A stretch of 64,000 nt of DNA from a virus. The translations under genes and the position numbers were made by a program. The notes under the pieces are model-generated. The model was not told where the DNA came from. It ran no database searches and saw only the letters and a list, made by a program, of their open reading frames with translations. Position 1 is the stretch's first letter; the number at the start of each line of letters is the position of its first letter. Shown here in pieces: positions 29,614 to 46,001 of the stretch. The DNA lies in the IMG/VR virus record IMGVR_UViG_3300045988_135160; one strand, given 5' to 3'.

Positions 29614-30633
29614 TCATCGTTTTATCTTTTTAGACGGATCCCAATCTGAAGAGAAAGGGCATTCGTTTTTGTTATGTAATCCAAAGTCACAATAGTAACA
29701 CAGTGCTGACGGGCAGGGTAGCTTGTTTTGCGGAACAGGCTGGCTTAGGGTGGCACGCCGCTTGCTATACCTGGCTCCTTCTGCTCCCTGGATGTATGCC
29801 TGAAATGTTTTTACACTATTATCTTCAAAATCATACATTTTAGACAAAGTGTCATTTAGCATCTCTATAGATTTTGTTTTACGTTCCTCATCCACCTTAA
29901 CCTTTTGGTATTGTCTGGTCCTGGTAAAGAAATAGATGTTCATATCTGGCAGAACTCCACCATATTTTCTATAGATGTAAAACGAATATATAGGATGCTG
30001 TAAATTCGTTTCCAACTTCTTAGAATCAAAAACCTTATTACCTGATTTCCAATCTATGACATAATGGTGAACTACGTTCTTGCTTTTTATAGCCAGATGA
30101 AGGTCTACCGATCCTACTATGTACACATGAGTATGAATTACTCCATTTATGTTAACAGGCTTAGGAAGACGGTACGGCAGCACAAAATCTTCTTCGACTC
30201 CAACTATAGCGCCGTGTCTGATAAGTTTCTCGCAGGGATTAAGATCACTATCAGCTATCATAAACCTATTGCCGTCTTTTTTGAACAGATCCACAATCCA
30301 AGCAAGAAGCTCTCCAGATTGCTTCATGGCTATCATCATATTTTCCGGTGATTGCCAAGGTATGTCTTCTTGGTAAGCATAGTAACTTATAGCTTCCCCC
30401 AGGTCTTTGCCAGAAGGCTGTCTTCCGTTCTTGAAGAAGTATTCCAGTGTCTTATGAATAACCGTACCATAAGACGTAGCTTCTTGTTTTTCCGTAGACC
30501 TTTTGCCCTCCACGTAAGTTTTATACCATTTCATTGGACAAGTAAGAAACGTATCTATCTGGGAATAAGATATGGCAAGACGTTTCACACCATTAAACTC
30601 CTTATATAGCAAATGCGTTTCCGGGACCATCAT
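29614..30633 (-). CDS. Cas4/RecB-like PD-(D/E)xK nuclease with Cys cluster
   Basis: Motifs SYSQIDTFLTCP, GSVD, VIDWK (ExK) and QHPIY (QxxxY). Cys cluster CPSALCYYC plus the N-terminal Cys fits a Cas4-type Fe-S ligand set. Confidence 0.6.
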   Translation of the reverse strand: MMVPETHLLYKEFNGVKRLAISYSQIDTFLTCPMKWYKTYVEGKRSTEKQEATSYGTVIHKTLEYFFKNGRQPSGKDLGEAISYYAYQEDIPWQSPENMMIAMKQSGELLAWIVDLFKKDGNRFMIADSDLNPCEKLIRHGAIVGVEEDFVLPYRLPKPVNINGVIHTHVYIVGSVDLHLAIKSKNVVHHYVIDWKSGNKVFDSKKLETNLQHPIYSFYIYRKYGGVLPDMNIYFFTRTRQYQKVKVDEERKTKSIEMLNDTLSKMYDFEDNSVKTFQAYIQGAEGARYSKRRATLSQPVPQNKLPCPSALCYYCDFGLHNKNECPFSSDWDPSKKIKR

Positions 30634-30989
30634 AAGTCATTGTCTTTAAATCCTTCTGGGTAATATACAACATATTTCTTGCCATCCTCCGGCGTCATGG
30701 CGAATTGCATGTAGTTATTACGATTACGATGTTTGCCATCCAATCCTCGTTTCCAATACAGGATACCGTCTATATCCACATAAGATCGGCCTCGGTCGGC
30801 TCTAACCACGTCCGTGTGTAGCAGATACCCGTCGGAAGACACAATCCACACTTTATCCCCTTTGCTTAAATAAGATATTCTTTTTCTTACAACAACCCTT
30901 TTCTTATTATCCAATACAAATTCCTCGTCAGTCATACTCTTCATCCTCCTCTTCTTCTGTTTCAAAATCAATTCCATAATACTGATCAT
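30630..30989 (-). CDS. hypothetical protein (119 aa)
   Basis: ORF with a 4-nt overlap. Confidence 0.45.
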   Translation of the reverse strand: MISIMELILKQKKRRMKSMTDEEFVLDNKKRVVVRKRISYLSKGDKVWIVSSDGYLLHTDVVRADRGRSYVDIDGILYWKRGLDGKHRNRNNYMQFAMTPEDGKKYVVYYPEGFKDNDL

Positions 30990-31142
30990 AATGCTTGGTC
31001 AGTTCTTCTGGTTCTAAATCTTGTCCAAAATCCATGTTAAAAATATCGTAATTAGTAAAGCACTGTTCCTGCCGGCAGGAAATCTATGAATGCTGCTTTT
31101 ATTTCTTCAATTAGGCCCAAGTGTAACCCTGGGCCATTGTAT

Positions 31143-32843
31143 TTATTTTTTGTCATCTCCTTTTAGCTTCTTTAAAGTATCTGCAATCGGAAGCTGATCA
31201 ATGACTCCCAATGCCGGAGCGACGGTCTTAACAACATTGTTAAGGAAATTACCGGTACTGTTCTGACCGCCGTCAAATACCGTGATATTTCCGAGGTTAA
31301 TGTGCTCAAATGCCTTAACCTGTTCTCCGGCAATTTCTTTCCACTGATTAACCATCTTGTACTGGATGGCGATCTGAGGATTGGATTCTGCTGCTTCCAC
31401 CATAGCCTTAAATCCGTCGGCTTCTGCCATCAACGACTTTTTCTTACCTTCGGCTTCCGCTTCCAGCTTCATCTGAATAGCTTTTGCTTCCGCCTCTGCT
31501 TTTGCCAAATGTGCTGCTGCTTCAGCATCGGCCCGGCGTTTGATCTTCTCGGCCTCGGCATCAGCTTGCAACATAGCCTCCTGCTTCTGAATTTCAGCCG
31601 GCACAATCTTTTCAGCTTTAAGCGCAGCTTGAACCTTCTTAGCTTTAGCTTCTTCCACTTCTTTATCAGCAAGCTCTTTTGCCGTTTTCACAGCCGCTTC
31701 CGATTTAACTTTCTCTTCTCCGGCTTTCTTTTCTGATTGAGCTTTGATAACCTGCAATTCTGATTCTGATACAGCAACCTCTTTCTGGGCATTGTTGTAG
31801 CCTACAGAAGCATTTTTCTCAGCCTCAGCTTTCTTAATCTGAGCTTCAGAGTCTTGTATTGCTATAGCTGCTTGTTTGTCAGCTTCAGCTTTATTCTTTC
31901 CAACTTCTTCCATTCTTTCGGCTTCAGCTTTGTTTACTTCAAGTTCCGCCTTAGATCTTGCAATCGCTGATTCCTTGTCAGCCAAAGTCTTTGCTATAGC
32001 CGCAGCCCTATCTCTATCGGCTTGAGCTACACCGATCTGTTTTTCTTTATCGGTTAAAGCCAAAGCTACTTCTTTTTCTTTCTTTGTTTCAGCTACTACC
32101 GTTTCTTTTTCTTTTTCAGTATAGGCAATTTGAATCTCTTGCTCTTTTTGGGTATTAGCTACAGCCGTTTCTTTTTCCTTCTGTTGTACAGCAATCTTAA
32201 TAGCACCCAGCTTTTCCTGTTCTTCGATATTAGCCTGTGCTTCGTTCAGAGCCTTGCTTTCAGCCTCTTTACCAAGATTCATGATGTAGCCGGCTTCATC
32301 TCTGATGTCACTGATGTTAATGTTCAAAAGATAAAGACCCAATTTATTAAGTTCGTTATCAATGTTTTTTCTTGCCTTATCCAAAAACTCATCCCTATCA
32401 GAATTAAGTTTTTCGATTGTCATTTCGGCAATAATCAAACGCATCTGACCGTAAACGATGTCTGTAATAAGATTTTCAGTAGATTCGGTATCCATCCCCA
32501 AAAGTCTTTCTGCTGCATTTTGCATGATTTCAGGATTTGTACTGATAGCTACTGTAATAGTTGTAGGCACATCTACTCTAATATTCTGAGATGACAAAGC
32601 ACCGGTAAGCCTACAATCTATTTGCATAGGCTCCATAGACAAAACATCATAGCTTTGAATAATAGGCAAGACAAATGCCGCTCCACCATGATATAATTTT
32701 GCCGACTTCTTTTCCCCACCTGTCTTACCGTAAACGACCAAGACCTGATTAGGCTTACATCTACGATACCTTGATAAGACTCCGATGATTGTCAAAATAA
32801 TCACTACAGCTAAGATGGCTGACACGTACATAATTGTTGTCAT
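31143..32843 (-). CDS. flotillin-like SPFH (band-7) domain protein
   Basis: N-terminal TM helix, SPFH core (QVLVVYGK...GGAAFVLPIIQSYDVLSMEPMQID), then a long Glu/Ala/Lys-rich flotillin-repeat coiled coil. Same architecture as FloT/YuaG. Confidence 0.8.
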   Translation of the reverse strand: MTTIMYVSAILAVVIILTIIGVLSRYRRCKPNQVLVVYGKTGGEKKSAKLYHGGAAFVLPIIQSYDVLSMEPMQIDCRLTGALSSQNIRVDVPTTITVAISTNPEIMQNAAERLLGMDTESTENLITDIVYGQMRLIIAEMTIEKLNSDRDEFLDKARKNIDNELNKLGLYLLNINISDIRDEAGYIMNLGKEAESKALNEAQANIEEQEKLGAIKIAVQQKEKETAVANTQKEQEIQIAYTEKEKETVVAETKKEKEVALALTDKEKQIGVAQADRDRAAAIAKTLADKESAIARSKAELEVNKAEAERMEEVGKNKAEADKQAAIAIQDSEAQIKKAEAEKNASVGYNNAQKEVAVSESELQVIKAQSEKKAGEEKVKSEAAVKTAKELADKEVEEAKAKKVQAALKAEKIVPAEIQKQEAMLQADAEAEKIKRRADAEAAAHLAKAEAEAKAIQMKLEAEAEGKKKSLMAEADGFKAMVEAAESNPQIAIQYKMVNQWKEIAGEQVKAFEHINLGNITVFDGGQNSTGNFLNNVVKTVAPALGVIDQLPIADTLKKLKGDDKK

Positions 32844-32874
32844 AACTTTTAAAATTTAATTGTTGATAAAAAAA

Positions 32875-33369
32875 TTAGATAATTAATTCTCCTTCTTCGT
32901 ATTTTATATTCACCTTGTCACCGTTTTTGTAAGTTTTTCCAGACAAGCATCTTACTCTCATTTGCTCCTGTCTTCCATTTTTCGAAATATTTACCATATA
33001 ATGATTCTTCCCTGATCTAAACACTATCTCCACCTCTCTGCCATTTAAATCTTCCGGACATTCGTACACCATTTCTTGCTTTAACTTAAGAAGTAACTTA
33101 TATACGTAAAACAAAACGATAAAGAAAAACGACCCTATCACAACCCCTACTAAATGGGAACCCGAAAAGTAGGTAGTCCAGCTATATCCAAGAATAAAAT
33201 GTGTTATGCCCTTGAATGATATGATGTCCGACAAAGACATACTTAAATCAGAAGCATCATCAATATCAATATCCGTATCCAGATCAGATCCTAATATCGA
33301 CAACAAAAACTGTATAACAAAAGCAAATGACGCTATTAAAGCCATGCATAAAATTATGTCACTTCCCAT
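32875..33369 (-). CDS. NfeD-like membrane protein (flotillin partner)
   Basis: 2-3 TM helices plus a C-terminal beta-rich soluble domain (GKTYKNGDKVNIKYEEGELII). Sits immediately upstream of the flotillin gene, as in the yuaF-floT pair. Confidence 0.5.
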   Translation of the reverse strand: MGSDIILCMALIASFAFVIQFLLSILGSDLDTDIDIDDASDLSMSLSDIISFKGITHFILGYSWTTYFSGSHLVGVVIGSFFFIVLFYVYKLLLKLKQEMVYECPEDLNGREVEIVFRSGKNHYMVNISKNGRQEQMRVRCLSGKTYKNGDKVNIKYEEGELII

Positions 33370-33610
33370 ATCCTTCTGTTATTATTTTGTAAACAAGATC
33401 AGTCATATCTTTGATGGTCTCCATATCATAATCATTAATAACAATATTGAATTTTTGTTCCACCATCACTTCCAGTTCAATTTGATCGATAGAATCTAAT
33501 CCAAGTTCTTTAAACGTCACATCTTCTTCATGAACTATATCTATTTCCGAATTAAGAAACTGAGTAATAATTATATCCTCTATTATCTTTCTGATTCTTA
33601 CTTTTTCCAT
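33359..33610 (-). CDS. acyl carrier protein-like (83 aa)
   Basis: LGLDSIDQIELEVMVEQKF matches the ACP phosphopantetheine-attachment DSL/helix-II signature. Overlaps both neighbours, suggesting translational coupling. Confidence 0.55.
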   Translation of the reverse strand: MEKVRIRKIIEDIIITQFLNSEIDIVHEEDVTFKELGLDSIDQIELEVMVEQKFNIVINDYDMETIKDMTDLVYKIITEGYGK

Positions 33611-34311
33611 TGCTTTCTAATTTTGTTAAATAAATACGTTTTTATGTTTTTCAATCGCTCTTTGTCTGTTTCAGAACTTCCGGTAAACAAATAATCCGGA
33701 TTGCCTTTAGCCGGCGGCGTAGGCAATTTAGATACGGCAAACAACCAATCCATTTCCTTATTCTTCTTAGACTCCAAATAAGGCTCGGTAGCGATCTTAA
33801 ATTTTTCAGCTATTAAGTCAAAGAGCTTTGAATTTTTAAGGTTCATATGGACCGAAAAGGCCTGAGAAGGCGGTTTCCATATGAAGTTACATAAGCTCAT
33901 TGTATAATCTCCTGACTCTGCTATATAAGATTCCGTTACCTGAAGTATGACCTCTTTCTTGAATGAGGTGTTACCCATAAACCAACACAACCTGGATTCC
34001 GCTTCTTTTCTGCTGACACCTATGTCTTTTGAATACGATTCGTACATTCCTATCATAATCTTCAACGTTTCCAGAACCTCGTCTGTCATCTCCGGTGTCT
34101 CTATATAATTCACAAAAGACGTTCCTTTGTTGGTCAATCTCATCACGCCTGATTTTAATTTCTCAACCAGGCCAAGCTCTATATACCTCCCAGCATCTTT
34201 TTCCAGCATGGCTTCGATCATAACCGTATCCTTCTGTCTTATAGCAAGAAGATTAGCCAGATCATTAGGAGTCATGTCTGATGCTGCAAGTTGTCTGAAA
34301 TTGATGTACAT
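33598..34311 (-). CDS. hypothetical protein (237 aa), first gene of the ACP/NfeD/flotillin operon
   Basis: ORF with a 13-nt overlap onto the ACP gene. Confidence 0.5.
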   Translation of the reverse strand: MYINFRQLAASDMTPNDLANLLAIRQKDTVMIEAMLEKDAGRYIELGLVEKLKSGVMRLTNKGTSFVNYIETPEMTDEVLETLKIMIGMYESYSKDIGVSRKEAESRLCWFMGNTSFKKEVILQVTESYIAESGDYTMSLCNFIWKPPSQAFSVHMNLKNSKLFDLIAEKFKIATEPYLESKKNKEMDWLFAVSKLPTPPAKGNPDYLFTGSSETDKERLKNIKTYLFNKIRKQWKK

Positions 34312-34313
34312 GC

Positions 34314-34523
34314 CTAATCAGCTTTAATAAAAATAACATCCTTACCATCCTCCCTCTCTACGTGATTACACGGGCCTGCGACTACATCTACCGACCCGCA
34401 TGTAATGTGGTCATTAAATATACATCCTTCACATCCTAAGTCTGGCTCTGGAGCATCCACACATTTTAATCTCACAAGTCCGGCATCAAACACTTCTCCT
34501 ACTTTAAATTCCTTCTTTTCCAT
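34314..34523 (-). CDS. small Cys-rich protein (69 aa)
   Basis: CxxC pairs (CEGC ... CNH). Confidence 0.35.
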   Translation of the reverse strand: MEKKEFKVGEVFDAGLVRLKCVDAPEPDLGCEGCIFNDHITCGSVDVVAGPCNHVEREDGKDVIFIKAD

Positions 34524-34538
34524 ATTTCCTCCTTGTTT

Positions 34539-35141
34539 TTAACTGTTGTACCCTTCTTTGATAATCGAATTTCTACCGGTAGATACCGACTGTCGAAGAT
34601 CGTCATGTACAGAATCTACCGTAGAATACTTGTTTCTGGTTGTAAAAATCACTTCCAGCATCTCCTTGTAATCACCTAAAGCTACTTCATATCTCGGATC
34701 TACTTTGGCTTTTCTTTCGGCCTCGGCATTACTCTTAGCCAGCTCTCGGTCAAGAAGATCTTCTTTGATTCGGTCAGCAATCATATCAAGTTCTTTTTTT
34801 ATGACTTCTCCTGCTGCCCGAAGTTGACCTTCTACGTCGCCAAGCTGATCTTGGACGGTTCCTATTTCTTTCTTTAGGCGATCGTATTCGTTAATCATAC
34901 CCATATCACCTGCATAGCCGGAAAAGTCCTTGATTATTCTGGTTCCTTCTTTAAGGAGTTCAATAACTCGTCTTTTACGTTCTCTGCTTATTAAAGACGG
35001 AAGACGATAATTCATATCCGCCACCGCCTTATCATGTATGGAGTTGATTAAAAACATCTCTCTTTCATCCCCTGCAAACTCAGTAAGAACCAAAAGGAAC
35101 TTACTTATCAGGTATTCGTTTTCTTCTACTGTTAGTCTCAT
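34539..35141 (-). CDS. hypothetical coiled-coil protein (200 aa)
   Basis: ORF track only. Confidence 0.5.
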   Translation of the reverse strand: MRLTVEENEYLISKFLLVLTEFAGDEREMFLINSIHDKAVADMNYRLPSLISRERKRRVIELLKEGTRIIKDFSGYAGDMGMINEYDRLKKEIGTVQDQLGDVEGQLRAAGEVIKKELDMIADRIKEDLLDRELAKSNAEAERKAKVDPRYEVALGDYKEMLEVIFTTRNKYSTVDSVHDDLRQSVSTGRNSIIKEGYNS

Positions 35142-35156
35142 GGTTCTTATTTTTTT

Positions 35157-36293
35157 TTAATACAATGACTGTTCTTCCTTTGTCTCTTGTTCTTGATCTT
35201 GATTGTTCGTAACGTCTTCCACAGTATAGAGCTTGGGCGGCGTCGGCGGCTGGTTGGGGTTCACGAACTTCGTCCCGCCCTCCCCGTACATCCATCCATG
35301 TCCCGGCAGTATCTCTGGGTGGATTGTATTAGTAAGCTCTTCCATACTAACTTGCCTTACCTTCAGTATATGATGAAATACCAGTCCGGCTGTCCTGAAT
35401 GATGTTTTGTTTTCAGTTTTAAACCTATCAAGGGTCTGATACCAGTCTTTCCCAAATATCATATACTTATCCAGCCCGTACCTACGAGGATTGTGCAAAC
35501 CTATCATTAACGTACATAACTGACCCAGCGTATCGGATTGGTAAAAATCAGAAAGACGCGGAGGCTGCTCTTGTGGGCTTTTTATCCTTCCTTCTATTTC
35601 TCTGTTGAATTGGGATATGATGAGGAAAAATATGTTTTTATATACTAATTTAGCTTCGTTCATAACCGCCACCAAATCATCTATAGCCGACTTAGGATCT
35701 AATCCCATTCTTTTTATCAAAGCAATATGATCGACTTTAAATATTATAAGACGTTTGTCTTTATGTTTGGTAGCTATATGATACACAGCCGCCTCAAACT
35801 CTTTTACCGTACACGGAGCATCGATGTATATTATATTATTCCTGATTTCACCTTGAAGGATTTCAAACATCCTCATCTCTTCTACTGTATTAGAATCTTG
35901 CCTTCTTAATATTTCAGGAGCTCGCATTTTCATATCCTGGCTCATTCTACGAAGAAGAAGATCTTGAGGATTCATTTCGAACTCGCAATTAACAAGAAAA
36001 TAATCTTCTGCTTGCGGGTTGATCATCGGATTCATAACATTTTCCAATATCTTTTGAGCCACATACGATTTACCTACAGATGGCCGGGCTCCTATGGCAA
36101 TAGCGTGCTGAGGAAAAATACCTCCAAGCAAAGCCTCATCAATATAATCGTATCCGGTTTTAGCGGGGATAAGCTCTCCCCGCCTGTATTTCAAGATATT
36201 CTCATACGCCTCTTCCATAACCTGTTTGGAGGTTTTGAAAATATTCCGGATGTTAACTTTTGTCGTTTTGTTATCGAATGTTCCAAACTCCAT
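35157..36293 (-). CDS. DnaB-like replicative helicase (RecA-fold C-terminal domain)
   Basis: GYDYIDEALLGGIFPQHAIAIGARPSVGKS is the DnaB Walker A/H1 region. Walker B-like LIIFKVDHI. Confidence 0.65.
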   Translation of the reverse strand: MEFGTFDNKTTKVNIRNIFKTSKQVMEEAYENILKYRRGELIPAKTGYDYIDEALLGGIFPQHAIAIGARPSVGKSYVAQKILENVMNPMINPQAEDYFLVNCEFEMNPQDLLLRRMSQDMKMRAPEILRRQDSNTVEEMRMFEILQGEIRNNIIYIDAPCTVKEFEAAVYHIATKHKDKRLIIFKVDHIALIKRMGLDPKSAIDDLVAVMNEAKLVYKNIFFLIISQFNREIEGRIKSPQEQPPRLSDFYQSDTLGQLCTLMIGLHNPRRYGLDKYMIFGKDWYQTLDRFKTENKTSFRTAGLVFHHILKVRQVSMEELTNTIHPEILPGHGWMYGEGGTKFVNPNQPPTPPKLYTVEDVTNNQDQEQETKEEQSLY

Positions 36294-36298
36294 TGTGA

Positions 36299-37558
36299 TT
36301 ATTCGTTATTATGTGTATTTGCTTTATATCCATATGATTGATCTACTTCAATAGAAGTCAATCCATGTCCTATATATTTTAATTTTTTATATGATATATT
36401 TTTCTCATTTTCCCCATCTATATCTTTTATTTTAAAACTACCAGAAAGTCTTCTTGCGTAAATAAATCGTTTTTCACCATAAAACATTACTTTATCAAAT
36501 AGTCTAAACCCAAATACCCTAAATGGTGATTGATTCATTCTTTTGATCCCTCCCTTTTGCATCTTCATTTTATGAATTTGCCTATTATGTCTCCGTGTGA
36601 GTTTCATCTTGAAATGATATCCAAGCCTTTTTGCTTTAAAATTCTCTGAGATAACAAATGCATCAGAAACATGGGACTTTTCGATTCTATGTTTTATCCG
36701 ATTATGTTTCGTTATATATCCAAATGTCATACTAACGTTTGGATATAATGACTTCAATTTATCGAATAACTTCCATTTCATGATTCCCATCGCGGCCGCA
36801 TCACGAAGTGAAGTTCCTCTTTTTACCTTCAATTTAATATTCCCCTTATGGTACTCCTTATGGCAAGTTTCACATAAAGTAATCAAATTAGAAGGTGAAT
36901 CTCCACCAGTCTTTCGCGATTCGATATGGTGGATATTAAGAATAGGATTTTTCGATTTTCCCTTACAATGCTGGCATTTGTGACCATCACGAAAAAGTAT
37001 GTATTCTCGAACATTCCAAAATCCAAGTTGCTCGCCTTGCTGGTATTCTTTTCCCAATATATCAGGATTCTTAATCTTTTGAGTATCAAACTGAGAAGTT
37101 TCTATAATTAATCTTGAAACAGGAAGGATAGAATGTATAAAACTGACAACCTTAATATGGGAATCAATTTTTTGACAAACAGATGGAGCTATCCATCCTT
37201 GGCGCTTCGACTTTATTCTGTTATTAAATCTCGGCTTTCTATACCTTATCCTATTCCTTCTCGCTTTCCTCAATTCTCTTCTTGTCGAAAGCAAATTAAT
37301 GATATCATTTCTCAGAATAACTTCACTTGCGTAAAGCTCCTTGCTTTTCGTCGTAGCTGATAGACCAACATGTTTAGTTCCAGCATCAACGCCTAACACA
37401 ATTTCCTGTTTGTAATCAGATGTGACGTACATTAATTTGATGGTAAACGGACATAAGTTGACAACAACTGCCTTTTTGTCTTTAAGCAGTCTTCTAACCT
37501 TACCATGCCTTGTTGTTGGCATCAAAGGTTTACCATCTATGTCTTGTACGTACACCAT
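36299..37558 (-). CDS. iscB: IscB RNA-guided nuclease (PLMP, split RuvC and HNH), copy 1
   Basis: N-terminal DGKPLMPTTRHGKVRRLLK (PLMP domain). RuvC-I LGVDAGTKHVGLSA. HNH CQHCKGKSKNPILNIHHIESRKTGGDSPSNLITLCETCHKEYH. RuvC-III SHVSDAFVI. Size of 419 aa is typical of IscB. Confidence 0.85.
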   Translation of the reverse strand: MVYVQDIDGKPLMPTTRHGKVRRLLKDKKAVVVNLCPFTIKLMYVTSDYKQEIVLGVDAGTKHVGLSATTKSKELYASEVILRNDIINLLSTRRELRKARRNRIRYRKPRFNNRIKSKRQGWIAPSVCQKIDSHIKVVSFIHSILPVSRLIIETSQFDTQKIKNPDILGKEYQQGEQLGFWNVREYILFRDGHKCQHCKGKSKNPILNIHHIESRKTGGDSPSNLITLCETCHKEYHKGNIKLKVKRGTSLRDAAAMGIMKWKLFDKLKSLYPNVSMTFGYITKHNRIKHRIEKSHVSDAFVISENFKAKRLGYHFKMKLTRRHNRQIHKMKMQKGGIKRMNQSPFRVFGFRLFDKVMFYGEKRFIYARRLSGSFKIKDIDGENEKNISYKKLKYIGHGLTSIEVDQSYGYKANTHNNE

Positions 37559-37810
37559 TTGTTACAAACTAATTTTTAATTAATAACTACTATTCGTAGT
37601 AAGTCAGATATATTTCAATCTGTTAGTACCCATCGCCAATGTTATTCAGAGGTTTCTTACAAGCAACACTGTATCCAAATACAAATACTGTTTAATCACC
37701 TGCCTTAGAGCCTGGAGCTTGGATAAACACTCCAGGGTAACTATACATTCTCCGATAACGTAGTGCTCGAAGCACTTAGGCTAATAACCGGCCAGTAAAA
37801 CTGGATATAC
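36377..37810 (-). mobile_element. non-autonomous IS200/IS605-like IscB element 1 (iscB plus upstream omega-RNA block; boundaries approximate)
   Basis: Similarity to copy 2 extends from about codon 394 (YKKLK) through the roughly 230-nt upstream conserved block, then stops. Confidence 0.45.
37559..37810 (-). ncRNA. putative IscB omega-RNA (guide at the 5' end, about 37791-37810)
   Basis: Non-coding block immediately 5' of iscB-1, conserved with the block 5' of iscB-2. Two hairpins show compensatory changes: CCTGGAG/CTCCAGG versus CTACGAA/TCCGTAG, and GTGCT/AGCAC versus GTGTT/AACAC. Confidence 0.55.
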
Positions 37811-37843
37811 AAAAAAGTAAAATTCTATTTGTCTTTTTGTATA

Positions 37844-38119
37844 TTATTTCGGAGATCTTGCATTTTTGTCACCTTTCGTATCCGACTTGGATCCCCTATT
37901 AGCTTTTACTGATTTATACCTAAGACCGTTCTTGGTATGAGAACAATCCTTGCCTTTCCTCCAGCCCTTGCCCTTCTTCTTGTCCGTTTCGTAGTTTTTA
38001 CGACCAAGCTCCCGGCGTTTGGCTTTCTGTTCCGGTCTGGCATTTATCTCCTTGTCCTTTTTAGCCTTTTTCTTCCTGGCTTCTGGATGAGTCCTGTAGT
38101 ACTCTGTTGATCTGCCCAT
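37844..38119 (-). CDS. highly basic Lys/Arg-rich small protein (91 aa)
   Basis: ORF with more than 35 percent K+R. Confidence 0.4.
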   Translation of the reverse strand: MGRSTEYYRTHPEARKKKAKKDKEINARPEQKAKRRELGRKNYETDKKKGKGWRKGKDCSHTKNGLRYKSVKANRGSKSDTKGDKNARSPK

Positions 38120-38171
38120 GTGCTTATATTTTTTTTGATTAATAATAGCACAAAGATAGGCAATTCGCGCC

Positions 38172-38738
38172 CTATTTCAACCTGCCGTAGCTCATATCAG
38201 GATCACACCAGACATACCCATCTTTCTCATCATGGAGATACTCAGGACATCCTCTACATGCGCTACTTCCTGACACTATTTGATTGTTCTTATTAGGGCA
38301 CTTATCTCCAGGCTTATGCCATTCTATTCTCGAACCTGATCGTTCTTTGTTTACATGACAGAACTGAAAGATTTTTCCCATCGTCTTCTCGCCGAACATA
38401 CCTATATGTGTGTATTCTTCCGGTATAGAGAGAAATCCAGATAAATCTTTATACATCCTTTTCCGTTCCTCCGGCGTAGACCATAGTCTGTCAAGTTCGG
38501 CATGGACTCTTATCTTAAGAGATCTCAGTGATGGCCCCGCAAGCCGGCCTTTAGCTTTTCCCTTATTCGGCCCTGATTCATGAACACCGACATAAGCGTT
38601 GCATGGTTTGCACATCATAACCATACCTAAGCCTTTTCTGCTATATATTTTATCGGCATTGACCAGCTCGGTTTCCCTTCCGCAATAAGGACAAATTTCG
38701 CCTCTTAAAACCCGTTGTTGGCGCTCATTAAGTTCCAT
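38172..38738 (-). CDS. zinc-finger protein (188 aa)
   Basis: CPYCG, CKPC and CRGC Cys pairs. Confidence 0.5.
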   Translation of the reverse strand: MELNERQQRVLRGEICPYCGRETELVNADKIYSRKGLGMVMMCKPCNAYVGVHESGPNKGKAKGRLAGPSLRSLKIRVHAELDRLWSTPEERKRMYKDLSGFLSIPEEYTHIGMFGEKTMGKIFQFCHVNKERSGSRIEWHKPGDKCPNKNNQIVSGSSACRGCPEYLHDEKDGYVWCDPDMSYGRLK

Positions 38739-38980
38739 ACCCTATTCTTTTGTTTTTCTTTAAACTTTTCATACAAACTGCTTTCAGTTTCCATTTCCGA
38801 AACCTCTACCTCTACGTCCTCTCTTTTGAAAATTACTTTCTTGGCTGTCGGATACGCGCATTTAGAGATACGAATAGCATTACGAATAGCGTAAACAAAA
38901 TACGTTTCTGGTGACGATTCGATCACCACTACCTCATTTAAAGTGTTTTTGTAATTTTCCATATTATCTACTTGCTTCAA
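38705..38980 (-). CDS. hypothetical protein (91 aa)
   Basis: ORF track only. Confidence 0.35.
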   Translation of the reverse strand: MKQVDNMENYKNTLNEVVVIESSPETYFVYAIRNAIRISKCAYPTAKKVIFKREDVEVEVSEMETESSLYEKFKEKQKNRVWNLMSANNGF

Positions 38981-39314
38981 TTATATAACCCGGATGATCT
39001 TCGCACGCCTCTTTATATTCGATAAGAAACTTAAGAAATGAATCATAAGACCCCCATCCATTTTCTGGCTCGTATTTCAAAAGACTTTTTCTCTTGGAGA
39101 TCATAATACATATACCTTTTGTAAGTACATTCTTCATCTCATTGGTATATATTTCTCTATACAATTCTTCTGGTCTCCAAACATAATCGTACAGCGTTTC
39201 TTTATTTTCTGATACGAATATTCTTTGTGCCATCTTGTTCATGTTGTGGGTGATGTTTGCAACCCATTCACGATCCTCTTTCTTCTTGTTCTTAATATAA
39301 ACATCCAGGCTCAT
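38964..39314 (-). CDS. hypothetical protein (116 aa)
   Basis: ORF track only. Confidence 0.4.
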   Translation of the reverse strand: MSLDVYIKNKKKEDREWVANITHNMNKMAQRIFVSENKETLYDYVWRPEELYREIYTNEMKNVLTKGICIMISKRKSLLKYEPENGWGSYDSFLKFLIEYKEACEDHPGYIIEASR

Positions 39315-40305
39315 GATATTTTTCTTTTATCTTGTTACTAATTATCAAATCTGCCACATCATCTCCGTCTCCTACATTTTCAACATTTTGAAGATAGTCC
39401 GATACTTTTATCCTTGACTTCATCATCATCCCATCTATCTTTTTACTCCATGTCTCAAATGCTTGTCCTTTGTCCGGAAAAGCTACAGTCTTTCTATCTT
39501 TTAAAACATCTATCACTTCCGGCCTTAGATTCTGCAACCCACCGGTAGCTACAAATAACTCATCCGGTTTATTCACGGCGCATATAATAGCCGTCTTTTC
39601 TGATTCCACCAGATTAACCACCTTATCCGGATACTGGCTTAGAAGATGCTCTCCGAACAGGCATTGTCTAAACAAGAAGTCCCTTGCATGCAACGAATGA
39701 TAAAACATAACATGAGGCCGCTCATTGTCACCGTCTTTTTCCTTCACTCTTTTTACATCAATCTCATTCCCCTGGCTGTCGGTCTTTATATAAAAGTCCA
39801 TGATCTTGCCGGTTCTGCATACAAAGTCCTTATCTATCTGCCAGAATATACAACACCCTTTCCATCCCCATAAGTCCATTGTTCCGACATGATACCTTCT
39901 GAACACATCAGATACCCTTTCTTTTCCCCATAGAGACGATAAAAATCTAAATACGGTGTTTCTATCGTCTGGAACCACAGTCCTCTCAAACTCGCTAAAA
40001 GGTATGTAATTTACAACGTCAGGATTTACAGGAGGACGATAAGCTCTTATGCACTTATTTCCCGAAATCCAAAGATCTTTGTCACCTACATCCTTGCCGG
40101 TAGGTCGTTTATCATAACCGCAAGTTCGTTCATGATCGCATCTTCCAAACTCATTGCCAACGACCTGACCGGTCGCCACATCAATATAAGGGGTAAGGCA
40201 CCGGCTTTTCCCGCAAGCCGGGCAGGTTAGCTTCAGTCGGCTCCTGCCAGGCCTGCGGTCAAGTTGAAACCGAGGTACGTTTTCGTATTTTCTAAAATCA
40301 AGCAT
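39292..40305 (-). CDS. DNA primase-like protein (zinc finger plus TOPRIM-like region)
   Basis: Zn ribbon CPACGKSRC...CDHERTCGY. Downstream acidic cluster VESEKTAIICAV ... AFPDKGQ compatible with TOPRIM. Confidence 0.45.
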   Translation of the reverse strand: MLDFRKYENVPRFQLDRRPGRSRLKLTCPACGKSRCLTPYIDVATGQVVGNEFGRCDHERTCGYDKRPTGKDVGDKDLWISGNKCIRAYRPPVNPDVVNYIPFSEFERTVVPDDRNTVFRFLSSLWGKERVSDVFRRYHVGTMDLWGWKGCCIFWQIDKDFVCRTGKIMDFYIKTDSQGNEIDVKRVKEKDGDNERPHVMFYHSLHARDFLFRQCLFGEHLLSQYPDKVVNLVESEKTAIICAVNKPDELFVATGGLQNLRPEVIDVLKDRKTVAFPDKGQAFETWSKKIDGMMMKSRIKVSDYLQNVENVGDGDDVADLIISNKIKEKYHEPGCLY

Positions 40306-40327
40306 CCTTAGCTCCTCTCATTGCTTT

Positions 40328-41656
40328 TTATATCATGAATCTTTTAGACATTTCCTCTGCAATATCATATACAACCGTATGATCTTCTTCATTGTACGGC
40401 TTATTGATATTCAACACTCCTTTTCTCACTTTAAACTTCTTATCTTTTCTAAGGTGATTCAACATACCTTGTTGGAACACGCAGTCCGCCTTTTCAAGTG
40501 CTATACTGTCTTCTGTCCATTCTTTCAACGTATATCCTTTGCTGCTCGTGCTTTTTGGAGAAAAGTTCATAATACGTGCATCAATCCCATACCATGCTTT
40601 AACCATTCTTCTTTCAGCTTCTAATTGAAATGCGTATGATTCCCATATTCCCCCTGATTTAAAGTCGAGAATAACCACTTCTTCCTTCTCCACGTCTCTT
40701 ACCTCCTTCTTCGGATCACCTTTTTTAAACTGCCCTGTAGCCCTTTGATACACGGCTCCAAAATAACCTTCTTCTTTGTATTTGAATGTCATTTTAACCA
40801 TCGCATCTATCGGCGTAGCTACTAAATAGTCTTCTAATGACAATATTCTTTCAATCATCATCGGCTTAACCTTATACTCTGAACAAAATTTGGCAAACTT
40901 CATAATTCTGACAATCATATCATCAAGATCATCAATACTGTTAAAAAACCGATCAAGATTTTTCTTAGATATTTTCAGCTTGCCTTCTTGCACTGTCTTA
41001 ACTACAAAGCTTCGATTTAAGACCATATCTCTACCTGTTAGGTACAATCCGTACAGATAGTGCATGATCGTTCCCCTGTCGGCTTCATACTGTGCCACCT
41101 CTTCCGGATTGCGACCAAGCATCTTCATCTCTTGCTTCCATTCCTGAAGTGCGGTCTTATCATCTACATACCCATCTTTGATTAAAGTTGTTACCGAAGC
41201 ATATATCTTGGCCGTTCCATCATCCATCTTCCTTACATAAAAACGATTATCGTCTAATGTCAATCTTACGAATTTGGGAGTCTCAATCTTCTTCAACTCA
41301 TCGCAGATATAAAACGGCTCTAACGTTTCTTGATTTTCTGTAAACGGATTCGAATCTTCCTCTCCAGGGTTAGGATCTGCTTCCTCTGCCGGAGCTTCCG
41401 GTTCTTCTCCCTGGGCCTGCTCTGGCTCAGGCGCCGGCTCTTTAACTACTGGAACCTGTCCGCCTCTTTCTGCTATGTCTTTGTTTTTTATTAAAGACAT
41501 AACTTCCTTTCTCAATTGCTCCGGTGTTTGATTAGGATCTGACACCGACATCACAACATCGTTCATTCTAAACAACGTATTTTCTACTCCTTCCACCATA
41601 GGGACAAACCCTAAATCTGTTAATATTTTAATCTTTTCTTCTATCATACCTGTCAA
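40328..41656 (-). CDS. hypothetical protein, possible PD-(D/E)xK-fold (442 aa)
   Basis: Pro/Glu-rich linker. C-terminal VVILDFKSGG ... YAFQL resembles a (D/E)xK core. Weak. Confidence 0.45.
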   Translation of the reverse strand: MTGMIEEKIKILTDLGFVPMVEGVENTLFRMNDVVMSVSDPNQTPEQLRKEVMSLIKNKDIAERGGQVPVVKEPAPEPEQAQGEEPEAPAEEADPNPGEEDSNPFTENQETLEPFYICDELKKIETPKFVRLTLDDNRFYVRKMDDGTAKIYASVTTLIKDGYVDDKTALQEWKQEMKMLGRNPEEVAQYEADRGTIMHYLYGLYLTGRDMVLNRSFVVKTVQEGKLKISKKNLDRFFNSIDDLDDMIVRIMKFAKFCSEYKVKPMMIERILSLEDYLVATPIDAMVKMTFKYKEEGYFGAVYQRATGQFKKGDPKKEVRDVEKEEVVILDFKSGGIWESYAFQLEAERRMVKAWYGIDARIMNFSPKSTSSKGYTLKEWTEDSIALEKADCVFQQGMLNHLRKDKKFKVRKGVLNINKPYNEEDHTVVYDIAEEMSKRFMI

Positions 41657-42155
41657 TTATTTCAATAATCAACCTACCTCTTTCTTTAATCATTCCCCTG
41701 CTTTCCATATCCAGTACCTTCTTTACCGCATACTTCCACACAAAAGGAAATTCTGTTTCAAGTTTATCAAATTCCATCCGGTCAAGATACATGTCGAATA
41801 CCGTATGCTCCGATTCATGTAGAAAAACTATATTATCTCTGCAAGTGGCAACAGACTTATATATCCTTTTTGGAAGTATGTGACATACGTTACATACTGT
41901 AGGAAAATGGATAGCCCTACCAGTCATAGACATCCGAATACTATTCAGCTCTTCCAGCATAAGACGAAAAAACCCGGATAAATCCGGGCTCTCTAACTTT
42001 TTCTTCTTGCTGCTGTTTTTAATGGATGTAATTCTGTTTTTTTTCTTCGGAGTCAACTCTTTGCTCCTGCAAGCCTGGCATAAGCCATGACTTCTTATCA
42101 TCACTTTTCGTCCGCATCGTTCGCAGACGTATAGTTTCTTTTCCTTGCTTTCCAT
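41628..42155 (-). CDS. zinc-ribbon protein (175 aa)
   Basis: CERCG...CQAC and CNVCH motifs. Confidence 0.45.
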   Translation of the reverse strand: MESKEKKLYVCERCGRKVMIRSHGLCQACRSKELTPKKKNRITSIKNSSKKKKLESPDLSGFFRLMLEELNSIRMSMTGRAIHFPTVCNVCHILPKRIYKSVATCRDNIVFLHESEHTVFDMYLDRMEFDKLETEFPFVWKYAVKKVLDMESRGMIKERGRLIIEIIDRYDRRKD

Positions 42156-42340
42156 TCGAATAATAATGATATTATTGAAAAGAACAATCCCGCTGAAGCC
42201 AGTAGATAAGGTACGTTCATTAATAATTTAGATACCTCGTCTGTCTTAATCACTATCAGAAGGAAAGCGCCTGCTGAAAGCAATAATATTATCGCCACAA
42301 CAAGCGCTATGTTGGAAACTACATCAGCCTTACTCTTCAC
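42101..42340 (-). CDS. small membrane protein (79 aa)
   Basis: Two hydrophobic helices. Confidence 0.35.
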   Translation of the reverse strand: MKSKADVVSNIALVVAIILLLSAGAFLLIVIKTDEVSKLLMNVPYLLASAGLFFSIISLLFEWKARKRNYTSANDADEK

Positions 42341-42827
42341 TCTTCTTCTCGCCTAATTTTTCAGCTCCCTTCTGAAGATCATATTTGAATACGTCAATGA
42401 TCTTCGTTTCAGCAATAGCTTCGCAATTCCAGTCGCCTAACGTGCCCTGCATGCCTTTAGTCAACACAGCTTCGGCATCCTTGGGATTGCCGGCCTGGAC
42501 ATACATATAGCATGGTGTTTTCTTTTCTTTACCTTTCTTTTCATCCAGTGTAATGTAATTCACCTTACACTTATACCAGTACTCAGCTTCTCCGTTGAAG
42601 AAGATTTCCGACACTTTAATAGGATTTATTTTAACAATGTCGAACACTTGAAATAAATCCTTGAAAATCTCTAAAGATCTTGATTCTGCCTCTGTATAAG
42701 ATAAGGCATCTACCAAATACTTTTCAGTTACCTTCTTTTTTTTGCCGTTCTCGATATTATCAATCTCGGCTTTTACTGTGATTTCAAACCAACGATTCAT
42801 GTCTATATTTTTATTCAAATTAATCAA
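42330..42827 (-). CDS. hypothetical protein (165 aa)
   Basis: ORF. Its start overlaps the iscB-2 stop. Confidence 0.45.
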   Translation of the reverse strand: MINLNKNIDMNRWFEITVKAEIDNIENGKKKKVTEKYLVDALSYTEAESRSLEIFKDLFQVFDIVKINPIKVSEIFFNGEAEYWYKCKVNYITLDEKKGKEKKTPCYMYVQAGNPKDAEAVLTKGMQGTLGDWNCEAIAETKIIDVFKYDLQKGAEKLGEKKSEE

Positions 42828-44050
42828 TCCATTTCCTTTTGTACCATAAAGCGTTTACACCTTGATAATTTCAATTTCTTGTATGTAATATCTCTTTGGT
42901 TTTTACCATCAATATCTCGAATATTAAAACTACCGGTTTTACGCCTTGCGAATATAAAATAATAACTGTTTTCAAACATAACCCTATCAAACAATCGGAA
43001 ACCAAAAACTTCAAAAGGAGATTGATTTGGTCTTTTTATCCCTCCTTTTGGAATCTTTTGTTTATGGATCTGACGATTATGTCTTCTTACTAATCTTACT
43101 TTATAATAATATCCTAACCTTATAGCATCAAAGTTTTTAGAAATAACAAATGCATCGAAAACATGAGATTTTTCAATACCATGTTTAATCCTATTGTATT
43201 TTGTAACATAACCGAAAGTCATAGAAACTCTGTTGTATTTAGACCTTAGTTCTTCATACAATCTCCATTTCATTATTCCCATTACGGCTGCGTCGCGAAG
43301 CGACGATCCCCGTTTGATCTTTAAATCTATATTACCTTTATGGTATTCTTTATGACAAGTTTCACATAAGGTAATAAGATTAGATGGGGAATCTCCACCT
43401 GTCTTTCGTGATTCAATATGATGAACATTCAATACTGGGTCTTTTGACTTTCCCTTACAATGCTGGCATTTATGTCCATCTCTTGCTAAAACATATTCCC
43501 TAACGTTCCAAAATCCAAGTTGATCACCCTCCTGATATTCTTTACCTGATATATTAGGATTGTTAATCTTTTGAGTATCAAATTGAGCTACTTCGATAAC
43601 AATACGAGATATTGGTAATATAGAACATACATTGTCAATAACACGAATATGGGCGTCTACTTTGTATTTCACCGAAGGTGCTACCCATCCCGGACGCTTA
43701 CTTTTTATTCTATTATCAAAACGAGGTTTTCTATATCTCAATCTATTTCGTCTTGATCTTCGTAGCTCCCTTCTGGTAGACAAAAGATCTACGATATCAT
43801 TTCTAAGGATAACTTCACTGCTGTAAAGTTCTTTGCTTTTCGTTGTAGCCGATAGACCAACATGTTTAGTACCAGCATCAACGCCTAACACAATTTCTTG
43901 TTTGTAATCAGATGTTACGTACATTAATTTGATGGTAAACGGACATAGGTTTACAACGATTGCCTTTTTGTCTTTAAGCAGTCTCCTAACCTTACCATGC
44001 CTTGTTGTAGGCATCATAGGTTTACCATTTATGTCTTGTACGTACACCAT
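42824..44050 (-). CDS. iscB: IscB RNA-guided nuclease, copy 2 (about 80 percent identical to copy 1)
   Basis: Same PLMP, RuvC and HNH motifs (MVYVQDINGKPMMPTTRHGKVRRLLK; CQHCKGKSKDPVLNVHHIESRKTGGDSPSNLITLCETCHKEYH). C-terminus diverges from copy 1 after YKKLK. Confidence 0.85.
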   Translation of the reverse strand: MVYVQDINGKPMMPTTRHGKVRRLLKDKKAIVVNLCPFTIKLMYVTSDYKQEIVLGVDAGTKHVGLSATTKSKELYSSEVILRNDIVDLLSTRRELRRSRRNRLRYRKPRFDNRIKSKRPGWVAPSVKYKVDAHIRVIDNVCSILPISRIVIEVAQFDTQKINNPNISGKEYQEGDQLGFWNVREYVLARDGHKCQHCKGKSKDPVLNVHHIESRKTGGDSPSNLITLCETCHKEYHKGNIDLKIKRGSSLRDAAVMGIMKWRLYEELRSKYNRVSMTFGYVTKYNRIKHGIEKSHVFDAFVISKNFDAIRLGYYYKVRLVRRHNRQIHKQKIPKGGIKRPNQSPFEVFGFRLFDRVMFENSYYFIFARRKTGSFNIRDIDGKNQRDITYKKLKLSRCKRFMVQKEMD

Positions 44051-44300
44051 ATCTACAAACGTTTTTAATGTTTATTCAACATAAGTCAGAGTGAAACTCT
44101 GTTAGTACCCATCGCCAATGTTATTTAAGGTTTTTTTTGTAAGCAACACTGTTCCTGAATACCAGAACTGTTTAATCACTTACCTTAGAGCTACGAACTT
44201 GGGCAAACATCCGTAGGTAACTATCTATTCTTAAATAACGTAGTGTTTGTTTCAACACTTAGGCTAATAATCGGAATAGCTTTTGGCTATTATGCATAAT
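42869..44300 (-). mobile_element. non-autonomous IS200/IS605-like IscB element 2 (boundaries approximate)
   Basis: Extent of nucleotide and protein similarity to element 1. Confidence 0.45.
44051..44300 (-). ncRNA. putative IscB omega-RNA, copy 2 (guide about 44281-44300)
   Basis: Conserved with 37559-37810. Compensatory stem changes support a structured RNA. Confidence 0.55.
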
Positions 44301-44509
44301 ACAATACAAATTGTTTATGATTTGTATGGGTTATGCATTATTCTCGATTATTTACTATCGTGGCCACGAAATACTTACACCCCTCTAAGTGCGTCAGGGC
44401 TTCAATCATAGCTTCTTTTATCTCTTTTTCTTCCATTCTGTTTGTTTTTTTGGACAAAGATATGCCTTTTGATAATAAAAAAGATTCAAAATGATTTAAT
44501 TTAGCTTAA

Positions 44510-45178
44510 TTACTGCTCTTTTGATTCGTCCGGTATAGGCATGTCAAACTTTTTTCTGATAAACGACTCTGTTTCTTCGTTGAATGGATAGGCCTCCTCG
44601 ATAAAATTCATAGCTACCTCCATGTCACCGTCTGCTATATCTTTATACCTTTCAAAGATACCAACCAGGTCATTGTTGTATGAACGTTCTTGTTTTATGT
44701 TGTACACGTATTTCAATACCCTGTCTTTGATTTCATTGGCTTTTTTCACAGTATCATTGAAAGAATTTATACTTTCCAATTCTGGATCTTTGTTTTCCTT
44801 GTTTACCTTATCAAACTCTTCCTTGCTATATCCCGCTTCTCCTGTAATGGCTGGGCAAACACTTCCATTTATGATCCAAAACTGCTCATACGATCCTATC
44901 AGAAACTTTGATTCCATTTTAAATGCATTATATTTAATAAGCAAATTAGCCACCTCTGTTGCACCTTCTATGGTTCTAAAACCGATGCCGATATCTTTTA
45001 ACATAAATACTGGAACTCCAGTTCTTGGATACACGACTTCTTTTTTGTTCTTTATATTCCAGTTTTTAGCTTCAATTGGAATACCTTTACCAGCAAGCTC
45101 TTTGTCTATATACAGATATATCTCTTTGCATGTCAATGACACAATCTCATCTCTGCTTAAATCAAAAACTGTTTTCAT
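44510..45178 (-). CDS. hypothetical protein (222 aa)
   Basis: ORF. An antisense ORF at 44622-45200 was rejected. Confidence 0.5.
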   Translation of the reverse strand: MKTVFDLSRDEIVSLTCKEIYLYIDKELAGKGIPIEAKNWNIKNKKEVVYPRTGVPVFMLKDIGIGFRTIEGATEVANLLIKYNAFKMESKFLIGSYEQFWIINGSVCPAITGEAGYSKEEFDKVNKENKDPELESINSFNDTVKKANEIKDRVLKYVYNIKQERSYNNDLVGIFERYKDIADGDMEVAMNFIEEAYPFNEETESFIRKKFDMPIPDESKEQ

Positions 45179-45378
45179 TTATTTTTATTTATTAAATTAA
45201 ACAATCTACCTCTTTGTTCGGGCTCCGTATATTCAACCCATATATCGGCTGCCACATTTCTAAGAAATTCCATAAAGTCTTGATGATCCCTGTATTCAGC
45301 AGAATCAACTTTTCTCACAAAACTTAGAATTTCCTTTAACATCTTATTGTTTTCTTCAAGAAGTTCTCTGTCGGTCAT
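45175..45378 (-). CDS. hypothetical protein (67 aa)
   Basis: ORF with a 4-nt overlap. Confidence 0.35.
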   Translation of the reverse strand: MTDRELLEENNKMLKEILSFVRKVDSAEYRDHQDFMEFLRNVAADIWVEYTEPEQRGRLFNLINKNK

Positions 45379-45498
45379 AACCTTTCATATTTTCTTCTTA
45401 AGTCTTTACCTGCCCAGATATCATGATCTTTTTCTTGTTCTTGATAAATCTTTGCTGCTTTTTCAATATCTTCTCTTTTCATAATTTTATACTTTAAT

Positions 45499-45834
45499 CT
45501 AACCTCCAATAAAATCATCGGGAGTTATATATCCTACTGATTCCATACGGTCTATAATCTCATTCGCATTCATTTCTGAACCGTTCCATTCAAGTATGAT
45601 TTCATTTCCTGAAGCCATGCTCAAATTAGGCTCATTATCTCTAAATCCTGAGAAAGCAAGATGTTCCCAAATGGATTGCAGTGCAAGATCCGCTTCGTTT
45701 TGTTTGTTTTCTGCTTTCTTTATGGCATTTCTTAATTTTTTATTCATTATCACCCCCTTTCTTCTTCGCATGGGAGCAAGTCCTCGATGTATGCCCAGCG
45801 CATATAATGATCCTTTTCTGAAAGTTCTTCCCAT
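45499..45834 (-). CDS. hypothetical protein (111 aa)
   Basis: ORF track only. Confidence 0.4.
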   Translation of the reverse strand: MGRTFRKGSLYALGIHRGLAPMRRRKGVIMNKKLRNAIKKAENKQNEADLALQSIWEHLAFSGFRDNEPNLSMASGNEIILEWNGSEMNANEIIDRMESVGYITPDDFIGG

Positions 45835-46001
45835 GGCTTGCTCTTGGTTAAATAGACCAAATCATAAGCACCGTCAATATCCTCCACAATGAGCAGTTTC
45901 CCTTTGTCTGGCTTTTCTCTTGCATCGTGCCACACGCTGTTAATGCGCCATTCTGCACCAGCTTTAAAAAGAGGAACAGCAAATTCTATATCTTGTTTCA
46001 T
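45750..46001 (-). CDS. hypothetical protein (83 aa)
   Basis: ORF track only. Confidence 0.35.
   Translation of the reverse strand: MKQDIEFAVPLFKAGAEWRINSVWHDAREKPDKGKLLIVEDIDGAYDLVYLTKSKPWEELSEKDHYMRWAYIEDLLPCEEERG

Follow-up and report, generated by a model that had tools for sequence, protein, structure and literature searches.

Two diverged HEARO-type RNAs upstream of IscB genes in a gut phage genome

The locus raises the question of why two diverged blocks of DNA, each upstream of an open reading frame for an IscB-type protein, keep their base pairing where their letters differ. The blocks lie in a 64,000-nt stretch of virus DNA (IMG/VR record IMGVR_UViG_3300045988_135160), referred to here as the window. 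Positions 30000-50000 were 94% identical to phage csAssE-Sib (OR575929, locus L001; 151 kb, human gut) with 77% of the query covered, and the window is part of a ~150-kb gut phage. The csAssE-Sib genome has replication-module genes in common with the window and lacks both IscB insertions. Feature coordinates are collected in Table 1.

Identity and fold of the RNA

Scanned against Rfam, the full 64,000 nt gave two matches in total, both to RF02033 (HEARO) on the minus strand: 37847-37622 in copy 1 (100.9 bits) and 44293-44101 in copy 2 (113.1 bits). Both scores exceed the gathering threshold (GA 83), and both copies covered model positions 1-211 of 211. Each RNA is co-oriented with an IscB ORF and lies directly 5' of it, with 28 nt (copy 1) or 18 nt (copy 2) between the RNA end and the iscB ATG. 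In bacterial genomes, too, HEARO was found 5' of iscB genes that are distantly related (47-56% protein identity). In its full-length model match, and in position and strand relative to iscB, the window RNA resembles the omega RNAs of OgeuIscB and GstIscB.

HEARO, or omega RNA, was reportedly described bioinformatically in 2009 and demonstrated to be the IscB guide RNA in 2021. It is encoded 5' of iscB, serves as the guide of the nuclease, and is bounded by the transposon end, with a guide derived from the flank (Meers et al.; Goltsman et al.; review). Since Rfam recognises both copies and the family, its IscB link and its function are published, the two blocks are diverged copies of an RNA kind that is already known. 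We put the probability that both are the minus-strand omega RNA (HEARO, RF02033) of an IscB nuclease at about 0.93. The identification itself is of little weight, as a standard Rfam scan identifies both copies. A structured RNA 5' of IscB was what the initial annotation had proposed, and the RF02033 matches and adjacent IscB ORFs bear this out.

That proposal started from two hairpins, whose coordinates and letters proved exact on direct reading. The first is CCTGGAG (37711-37717) with CTCCAGG (37730-37736) in copy 1 and CTACGAA (44191-44197) with TCCGTAG (44210-44216) in copy 2; four of its seven pairs are doubly substituted and still pair (C-G to T-A, T-A to A-T, G-C to C-G and G-C to A-T). 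The second is GTGCT/AGCAC (37763-37775) and GTGTT/AACAC (44243-44258), the loop being 3 nt long in the former and 6 nt in the latter. They correspond to helix 6, with double changes in 5/8 pairs, and helix 3 of the fold described below.

Covariation was measured on a larger alignment. IMG/VR held 179 relatives of IscB-1, from which 80 loci were fetched; 50 distinct-looking upstream regions gave the 44 distinct rows of alignment A2. Of the 69 pairs predicted by RNAalifold, 30 showed compensatory double changes. The structure used for counting was Rfam-like, with 74 pairs, the nexus stem and the pseudoknot included. Among the 44 distinct sequences, 97.6% of pair cells were paired, versus 33-44% after the 3' partner had been slid by 1-3 columns, and 30 pairs held double changes versus 2-7 in the slid controls (69-74 pairs). 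The covariation score was 0.272 versus 0.03-0.06 slid. None of 500 column shuffles matched the observed value on any of five measures. Between the two window copies, 45 of the 74 pairs were identical, 17 were doubly compensated, 6 had changed on one side and 5 were broken in one copy. The substitutions are thus pair-correlated in the larger alignment, and the claim of selection on RNA pairing stands.

The fold includes the nexus stem and pseudoknot expected of HEARO. The pseudoknot helix was 100% paired; of its pairs, one carried a double change, found in one sequence, and another a one-sided change. A constant U-U occurs once in the nexus stem. P1 reads AUAAU/AUUAU in the phage family, not GUCAA/UUGAC as in the bacterial relatives, and encloses one large and one small hairpin in both groups.

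The transcribed strand, a detail missing from the initial annotation, was fixed as minus because more pairs are standard when G-U is read on that strand: 71/74 and 68/74 in the two window copies as minus-strand RNA, compared with 63/74 as plus-strand RNA. The sixth pair of the first hairpin in copy 2 points the same way, being A-C on the plus strand and G-U on the minus strand.

In the solved IscB complex, a 5' guide of ~16-17 nt runs directly into the guide adaptor hairpin; next are the nexus stem, the central stem, stem-loop 2 and the nexus pseudoknot hairpin with its pseudoknot, and in the 3' part a linker and two terminal hairpins (Kato et al.). The helices common to this RNA and the window copies are P1, or guide adaptor, with its enclosed hairpins, the nexus, the central stem, the pseudoknot hairpin, the pseudoknot and the terminal hairpins. 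Stem-loop 3 of OgeuIscB, located between central stem and nexus 3' strand, has no counterpart in the window RNA, which also differs from known omega RNA in that its pseudoknot uses the loop of the first internal hairpin.

Two details of the initial annotation need correction. The segments that it listed as single-stranded are nearly invariant, as it had said, but most of them are paired; they are strands of conserved long-range helices and of the pseudoknot. Thus AATAACATTGGCGATGGGTAC holds the 3' strands of the central stem, nexus stem and pseudoknot, TTATTAGCCTAAG the P1 3' strand and nexus 5' strand, and GTGATTAAACAG and ACAGTGTTGC are both strands of the long hairpin. The invariance of these segments is probably explained by their place in the core held by IscB, where they make up the pseudoknot and the helices in contact with the protein; peripheral hairpins would need pairing only, and so drift by compensatory change. 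The RNA is present throughout the proposed block (37590-37800) but is wider, spanning about 37586-37848 plus a 5' guide, and the block had left out the 5' guide-adaptor region. At the other end, the terminal hairpins (helices 10 and 11) lie 3' of the RF02033 model and covary, so the RNA runs to 37586 and 44068. The curated model therefore under-covers the window RNA (37586-37622 and 44068-44101); RF02033 has been noted to lack downstream elements of the RNA (Meers et al.).

Table 1. Coordinates of the inserted elements, RNAs, candidate guides and genes in the window.
Feature	Position	Strand	Sequence or remark
Inserted element 1	36243-37856	minus	omega RNA, iscB-1, degenerate tail
Inserted element 2	42801-44348	minus	linker, omega RNA, iscB-2, 23-nt tail TTAATTTGAATAAAAATATAGAC
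iscB-1	36299-37558	minus	419 aa; PLMP motif, RuvC, RRXRR bridge helix, HNH
iscB-2	42824-44050	minus	408 aa; RRXRR and HNH
Constant linker, copy 1	37849-37856	minus	AUCUCCGA; between phage flank and P1
Constant linker, copy 2	44343-44348	minus	AUCGAG
Candidate 16-nt guide, copy 1, flank-derived	37857-37872	minus	GUGACAAAAAUGCAAG; placed by the published IscB model
Alternative 16-nt candidate guide, copy 1, P1-adjacent	37863-37848	minus	AUGCAAGAUCUCCGAA
Candidate 16-nt guide, copy 2, flank-derived	44349-44364	minus	placed by the published IscB model
Alternative candidate guide, copy 2, P1-adjacent	44358-44343	minus
Omega RNA scaffold, copy 1	37586-37848	minus	RF02033 match and covariation
P1 5' strand, copy 1	37848-37843	minus	AAUAAU
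Large hairpin, copy 1	37844-37805	minus	followed by small hairpin CCAG/CUGG
P1 3' strand, copy 1	37788-37783	minus
Nexus stem, copy 1	37781-37777 with 37639-37635	minus
Stem-loop, copy 1	37776-37762	minus	second hairpin of the initial annotation
Central stem, copy 1	37759-37750 with 37651-37641	minus
Pseudoknot hairpin, copy 1	37736-37711	minus	first hairpin of the initial annotation
Long hairpin, copy 1	37703-37659	minus
Pseudoknot, copy 1	37724-37720 with 37632-37628	minus
Terminal hairpins, copy 1	37622-37605 and 37600-37586	minus
Omega RNA scaffold, copy 2	44068-44342	minus	RF02033 match and covariation
P1 5' strand, copy 2	44342-44337	minus	AAUAAU
Large hairpin, copy 2	44338-44292	minus	small hairpin AUAGC/GCUAU
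P1 3' strand, copy 2	44271-44266	minus
Nexus, copy 2	44264-44260 with 44118-44114	minus
Stem-loop, copy 2	44259-44242	minus	second hairpin of the initial annotation
Central stem, copy 2	44239-44230 with 44130-44120	minus
Pseudoknot hairpin, copy 2	44216-44191	minus	first hairpin of the initial annotation
Pseudoknot, copy 2	44204-44200 with 44111-44107	minus
Terminal hairpins, copy 2	44101-44087 and 44082-44068	minus

The iscB genes and their insertion sites

Both genes matched Pfam RRXRR (E 2e-58 for iscB-1, 3e-60 for iscB-2) and HNH (1e-8 in iscB-1). OgeuIscB-type chains in the PDB were matched at E~1e-41 to 1e-43, with the PLMP and RuvC/HNH motifs aligned. The two proteins are 79% identical, and comparison of the genes gave a dN/dS of 0.083 at a dS of about 1.85. 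Both genes are intact and under strong purifying selection, and the dS value marks them as old paralogous lineages, with no recent duplication.

Site 1 carries window positions 36243-37855 in place of 31 nt of csAssE-Sib (7242-7272 of that genome), and site 2 carries 42841-44350 in place of 144 nt (12444-12587). At site 1 of csAssE-Sib, the upstream ORF overlaps the start of a DnaB-like helicase gene; in the window, the N-terminus of this helicase is recoded (MEFGTFDNKTTKVNIRNIF... vs MHEEIANRIDIRRIF...). At site 2, an 86-aa ORF of csAssE-Sib is cut to 34 codons in the window, and element 2 ends directly 5' of the ATG of a DUF4494 gene (42800-42798). A search with the right flank of site 1 found no clean empty allele; the flank occurred in four contigs only, all of them element-bearing.

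The iscB-distal end of element 1 has no clean junction. IscB-1 is without the usual stop and ~80-nt tail, and its C-terminal ~15 aa are a read-through extension across the fossil of another insertion site. The fossil, AATCATATGGATATAAAGCAAATA (36316-36339, minus, inside the iscB-1 3' end), agrees at 23/24 nt with the right junction and first gene codons of that other site (L028-type loci). Because copy 1 carries the junction and flank of another site, it reached its present place with foreign flank by recombination, not by precise transposition.

Three further candidates near site 2 were dropped. The 86-aa csAssE-Sib ORF was considered as a decayed IscB and rejected, as its similarity was nil. 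Derivation of the 23-nt tail of element 2 from native sequence upstream of the DUF4494 gene was rejected because 218/2000 shuffles scored equally well. An 8-mer, ATCGAGAA, is repeated 72 nt past element 2, at a number about that expected by chance.

Junctions, linker and candidate guide

Clean pairs of occupied and empty alleles were found at four sites among the fetched phage loci. With junctions marked by a slash, the pairs are GTAATGAAC/ATGTTCGG (empty) and GTAATGAAC/ATTCTCGCGAATAAT...GAAGATATGAAT/ATGTTCGG (occupied); GGTA/ATGGCT and GGTA/ATTCTCGCG...ATAGAC/ATGGCT; AATG/ATGAGG and GATG/ATAACTTCA...GTTTAT/ATGAGG; and GCCGAT/GTGGTG and GCCGAT/ATTCTCGCG...ATAGAC/ATGGTG. The first letters of the element are AT, the target is not duplicated, and the left flanks are unrelated between sites. 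The right flank began with ATG in all 8 distinct right flanks (c7/W2/c2 types); the next phage gene usually starts at this ATG, which in one case precedes a tRNA gene. On the opposite strand ATG(R) reads YCAT, and so resembles TTCAT, the TAM and target motif of the Geobacillus IscB (GstIscB) element, which reads as ATG-type on the other strand.

At one site, ending in TGTGAAAG(A/C)CGAT (e.g. L076 2900-2960 and L081 5782-5849), 34 empty alleles continue as GAT/GTGGT, one of them with GCGGT, and the occupied alleles (L057, L069, L072, L076 and L078) as ...ATAGAC/ATGGT. Either the A at the first base past the element belongs to the element, or the empty alleles carry a variant in the TAM position.

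These junctions resemble those of IS200/IS605 (ISC) elements mobilised by TnpA in trans: insertion beside a short motif is precise and without target duplication, the motif is in one flank (ATG, or CAT/ on the other strand), and the element start (AT...) resembles the target motif (AT G), as TEM and TAM do. A subterminal hairpin is a further likeness; at the omega-RNA end, a covarying hairpin lies ~15 nt inside the boundary and folds well as ssDNA (z = -4.6). The junction behaviour is best read as that of an IS200/IS605-type element, with a putative TAM beside the iscB-distal end and a putative guide in the flank at the omega-RNA end.

The likeness to IS200/IS605 elements has limits. No hairpin was detected at the iscB-distal end (fold z = 0.27), where the folded stretch stopped ~36 nt short of the element end, and no palindrome was seen by eye in the remaining AT-rich tail; a subterminal imperfect palindrome was thus detected at one end, not at both as in ISC transposons. 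Searches by tblastn with sequences taken as those of IS608 and ISDra2 TnpA gave nothing better than E = 0.37 for tnpA in the 64-kb window and all fetched loci (~90 related loci). TnpA may be encoded by the host; tnpA was reported near only ~1.5% of iscB genes (Meers et al.). Among candidate hosts, a Phocaeicola MAG carries an IscB with 69% identity. At several insertions, 30-150 nt of flank have been replaced, and neither window copy has a perfect junction when compared with csAssE-Sib. This replacement and the fossil in copy 1 are not predicted by precise TnpA excision and insertion.

Between flank and P1, the elements carry a linker of 6-10 nt (ATTCTCGCG, ATCGAG, ATCTCCGA, ATAACCTCA, ATATCTGC and others) that is conserved within sub-lineages and homologous between them. 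Flanks at the omega-RNA end vary between sites, and the constant linker separates them from P1. In the occupied and empty pairs, the homologous linker is missing from empty sites and is therefore part of the element. The bacterial relatives have variable sequence directly 5' of P1. Beside copy 2, homology to csAssE-Sib ends at about 44351. The boundary of the copy 1 linker was placed by analogy and from the loss of homology to csAssE-Sib; its sequence, AUCUCCGA, is homologous to ATTCTCGCG, ATAACCTCA, ATATCTGC and similar linkers of related elements.

The OgeuIscB guide abuts the adaptor hairpin, and a linker before P1 therefore implies either that the guide is not simply flank or that a spacer is tolerated. 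By comparison with published IscB systems, we somewhat favour the flank as the functional guide. The linker may consist of a transposon-encoded end motif and a spacer, or it may be former flank that the element took in when its boundary moved outwards; such sliding, with capture of flank, has been seen experimentally for IS200/IS605 elements (Meers et al.).

A rather improbable alternative is that the omega RNA is real but the flank does not reprogramme its guide, whose seed position is taken by the constant linker. Specificity would then be largely fixed, either as a fossil of an earlier home site or domesticated, for example for attack on competitor phages, or empty sites would not be cut. 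Canonical HEARO position 1 is the P1 5' strand, and the phage family has conserved, element-borne nucleotides exactly where the bacterial relatives are variable; the reported boundary sliding and the fossil at the other end of copy 1 also agree with such a history. Against this, the P1-adjacent 14-mers of eight sub-lineages had no ATG-flanked target in 735 kb of related phage DNA at up to 2 mismatches, nor one near empty sites. Sub-lineages differ in the length and sequence of their linkers, a pattern more in keeping with a transposon-end motif and spacer than with a guide under selection, and the strong purifying selection on IscB speaks against a system that is dead. A search of IMG/VR with ATTCTCGCGA followed by ATGA or ATGG returned, among the matches listed, unrelated contigs, 14-mers being too short for a collection of that size.

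Two other candidates in this region were not retained. A guide inside the element that matches the empty sites of csAssE-Sib was rejected, since colinear flank homology was all that was found. A sigma-70-like promoter at 37843-37872 on the minus strand (GTGACA-18-AATAAT, 10/12, with P1 AATAAT as the -10) was set aside because its -35 lies in site-specific flank and the match count is within shuffle expectation.

Proposed mechanism and comparison with known systems

In the best reading, the RNA and iscB together form a compact tnpA-less element of IS200/IS605-like (ISC) type in a ~150-kb gut phage. As in the OgeuIscB and GstIscB work, the omega RNA would be transcribed with the co-oriented upstream phage gene, or by read-through from it, and its scaffold would bind IscB and replace the missing REC lobe. 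Following published work, ~16 nt at the RNA 5' end, from the flanking DNA of the element, would base-pair with a target in DNA that has a TAM on its 3' side, here presumably ATG and usually ATGR. IscB would cut element-free copies of the site, and recombination with an occupied copy would restore or spread the element. Among related phages that infect the same cell, such a cycle would be a form of RNA-guided homing.

The same RNA might instead be a cis-regulatory 5' leader of the iscB mRNA, acting on translation or stability and not in trans as a guide. It does lie in the 5' UTR, with its last hairpins at the short distances from the start codon given above. The match to HEARO is full-length, however, and HEARO is experimentally the IscB guide RNA; the nexus and pseudoknot architecture is that bound to IscB in the solved complex (Kato et al.). 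We regard a leader as very improbable. Slighter still is the chance that the compensatory changes record DNA hairpins for a TnpA-type transposase (transposon-end palindromes), for this could apply to the large 5' hairpin alone, which has the subterminal position and ssDNA fold noted above and covaries in 8/11 pairs, whereas the ten other helices use G-U pairs present only in the minus transcript and include long-range stems and a pseudoknot spanning ~150 nt, and the two hairpins first noticed lie in the core, not at the element end.

A broader reading of the omega RNA elements is tentative, and we think it less probable than not by some distance: tnpA-less IscB-omega RNA cassettes may have colonised ~150-kb human-gut phages at ATG-adjacent sites by RNA-guided homing, with 6-10 built-in nt in the guide seed position. 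About 180 copies of the cassette family were found in IMG/VR at a minimum of 8 insertion sites, often 2 per genome. Cassettes insert directly 5' of ATG, where the spacers are a few nt in length, and the TAM would then be the start codon itself. If true, this would mean an undescribed spacer-tolerant guide architecture or a partly fixed guide.

The elements of the phage family differ from known IscB elements in being in phage genomes and in very short spacers directly before start codons (in one case before a tRNA gene). Like the free-standing homing endonuclease genes of phages (T4 seg/mob), they place a nuclease gene between conserved phage genes, are polymorphic for presence and absence, and in some alleles have diverged adjacent flanks. 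They differ from these in that target recognition would be RNA-guided, not protein-based, and in junctions that are base-exact at several sites, as in transposons. Like the Cas9 crRNA:tracrRNA and the TnpB reRNA or omega RNA, the window RNA would be the guide scaffold for an adjacently encoded RuvC(-HNH) nuclease. It differs in lacking a CRISPR array, in having its putative guide 5' (3' in TnpB) and in a scaffold much larger than tracrRNA.

The main use of the result would be correct annotation, two gut-phage ORFs of the 'HNH endonuclease' type being probable RNA-guided IscB nucleases with their own guide RNAs. For work on OMEGA systems, the loci provide dozens of natural pairs of occupied and empty alleles within one phage lineage; the putative ATG TAM would make start codons landing sites, and the conserved linker makes it worth asking what defines the guide in the phage IscB family. 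The ATG landing sites, the linker, the allele pairs and the two lineages per genome might be worth following up.

IscB/HEARO nucleases in viral genomes have already been noted in the literature. IscB homologues in GenBank phage records were labelled 'HNH endonuclease' or hypothetical, and all were at most 54% identical to the window IscBs; examples are NC_007581 133981-134994, NC_054462 35712-36932 and OP940114 105109-106179. The carriers are Clostridium phage c-st, Ralstonia phages and Staphylococcus phages (~141 kb genomes). A 20-kb contig assigned to 'Vibrio olivae' (L086, NZ_JBHMEP010000019.1) held a phage-family IscB (79% identical) and a HEARO match; it looks like a gut-phage-like element in a marine Vibrio assembly, on a contaminating or misbinned contig.

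Like the window, the related phage genomes IMG/VR 3300045988_063881, _098445 and _108138 each have two IscB elements, located at separate sites. One further locus, L008 (IMGVR_UViG_3300045988_105904), is a mosaic that combines a 5' hairpin and omega RNA of c7 type with an IscB C-terminus and 3' tail of c1 type, which points to recombination between element lineages.
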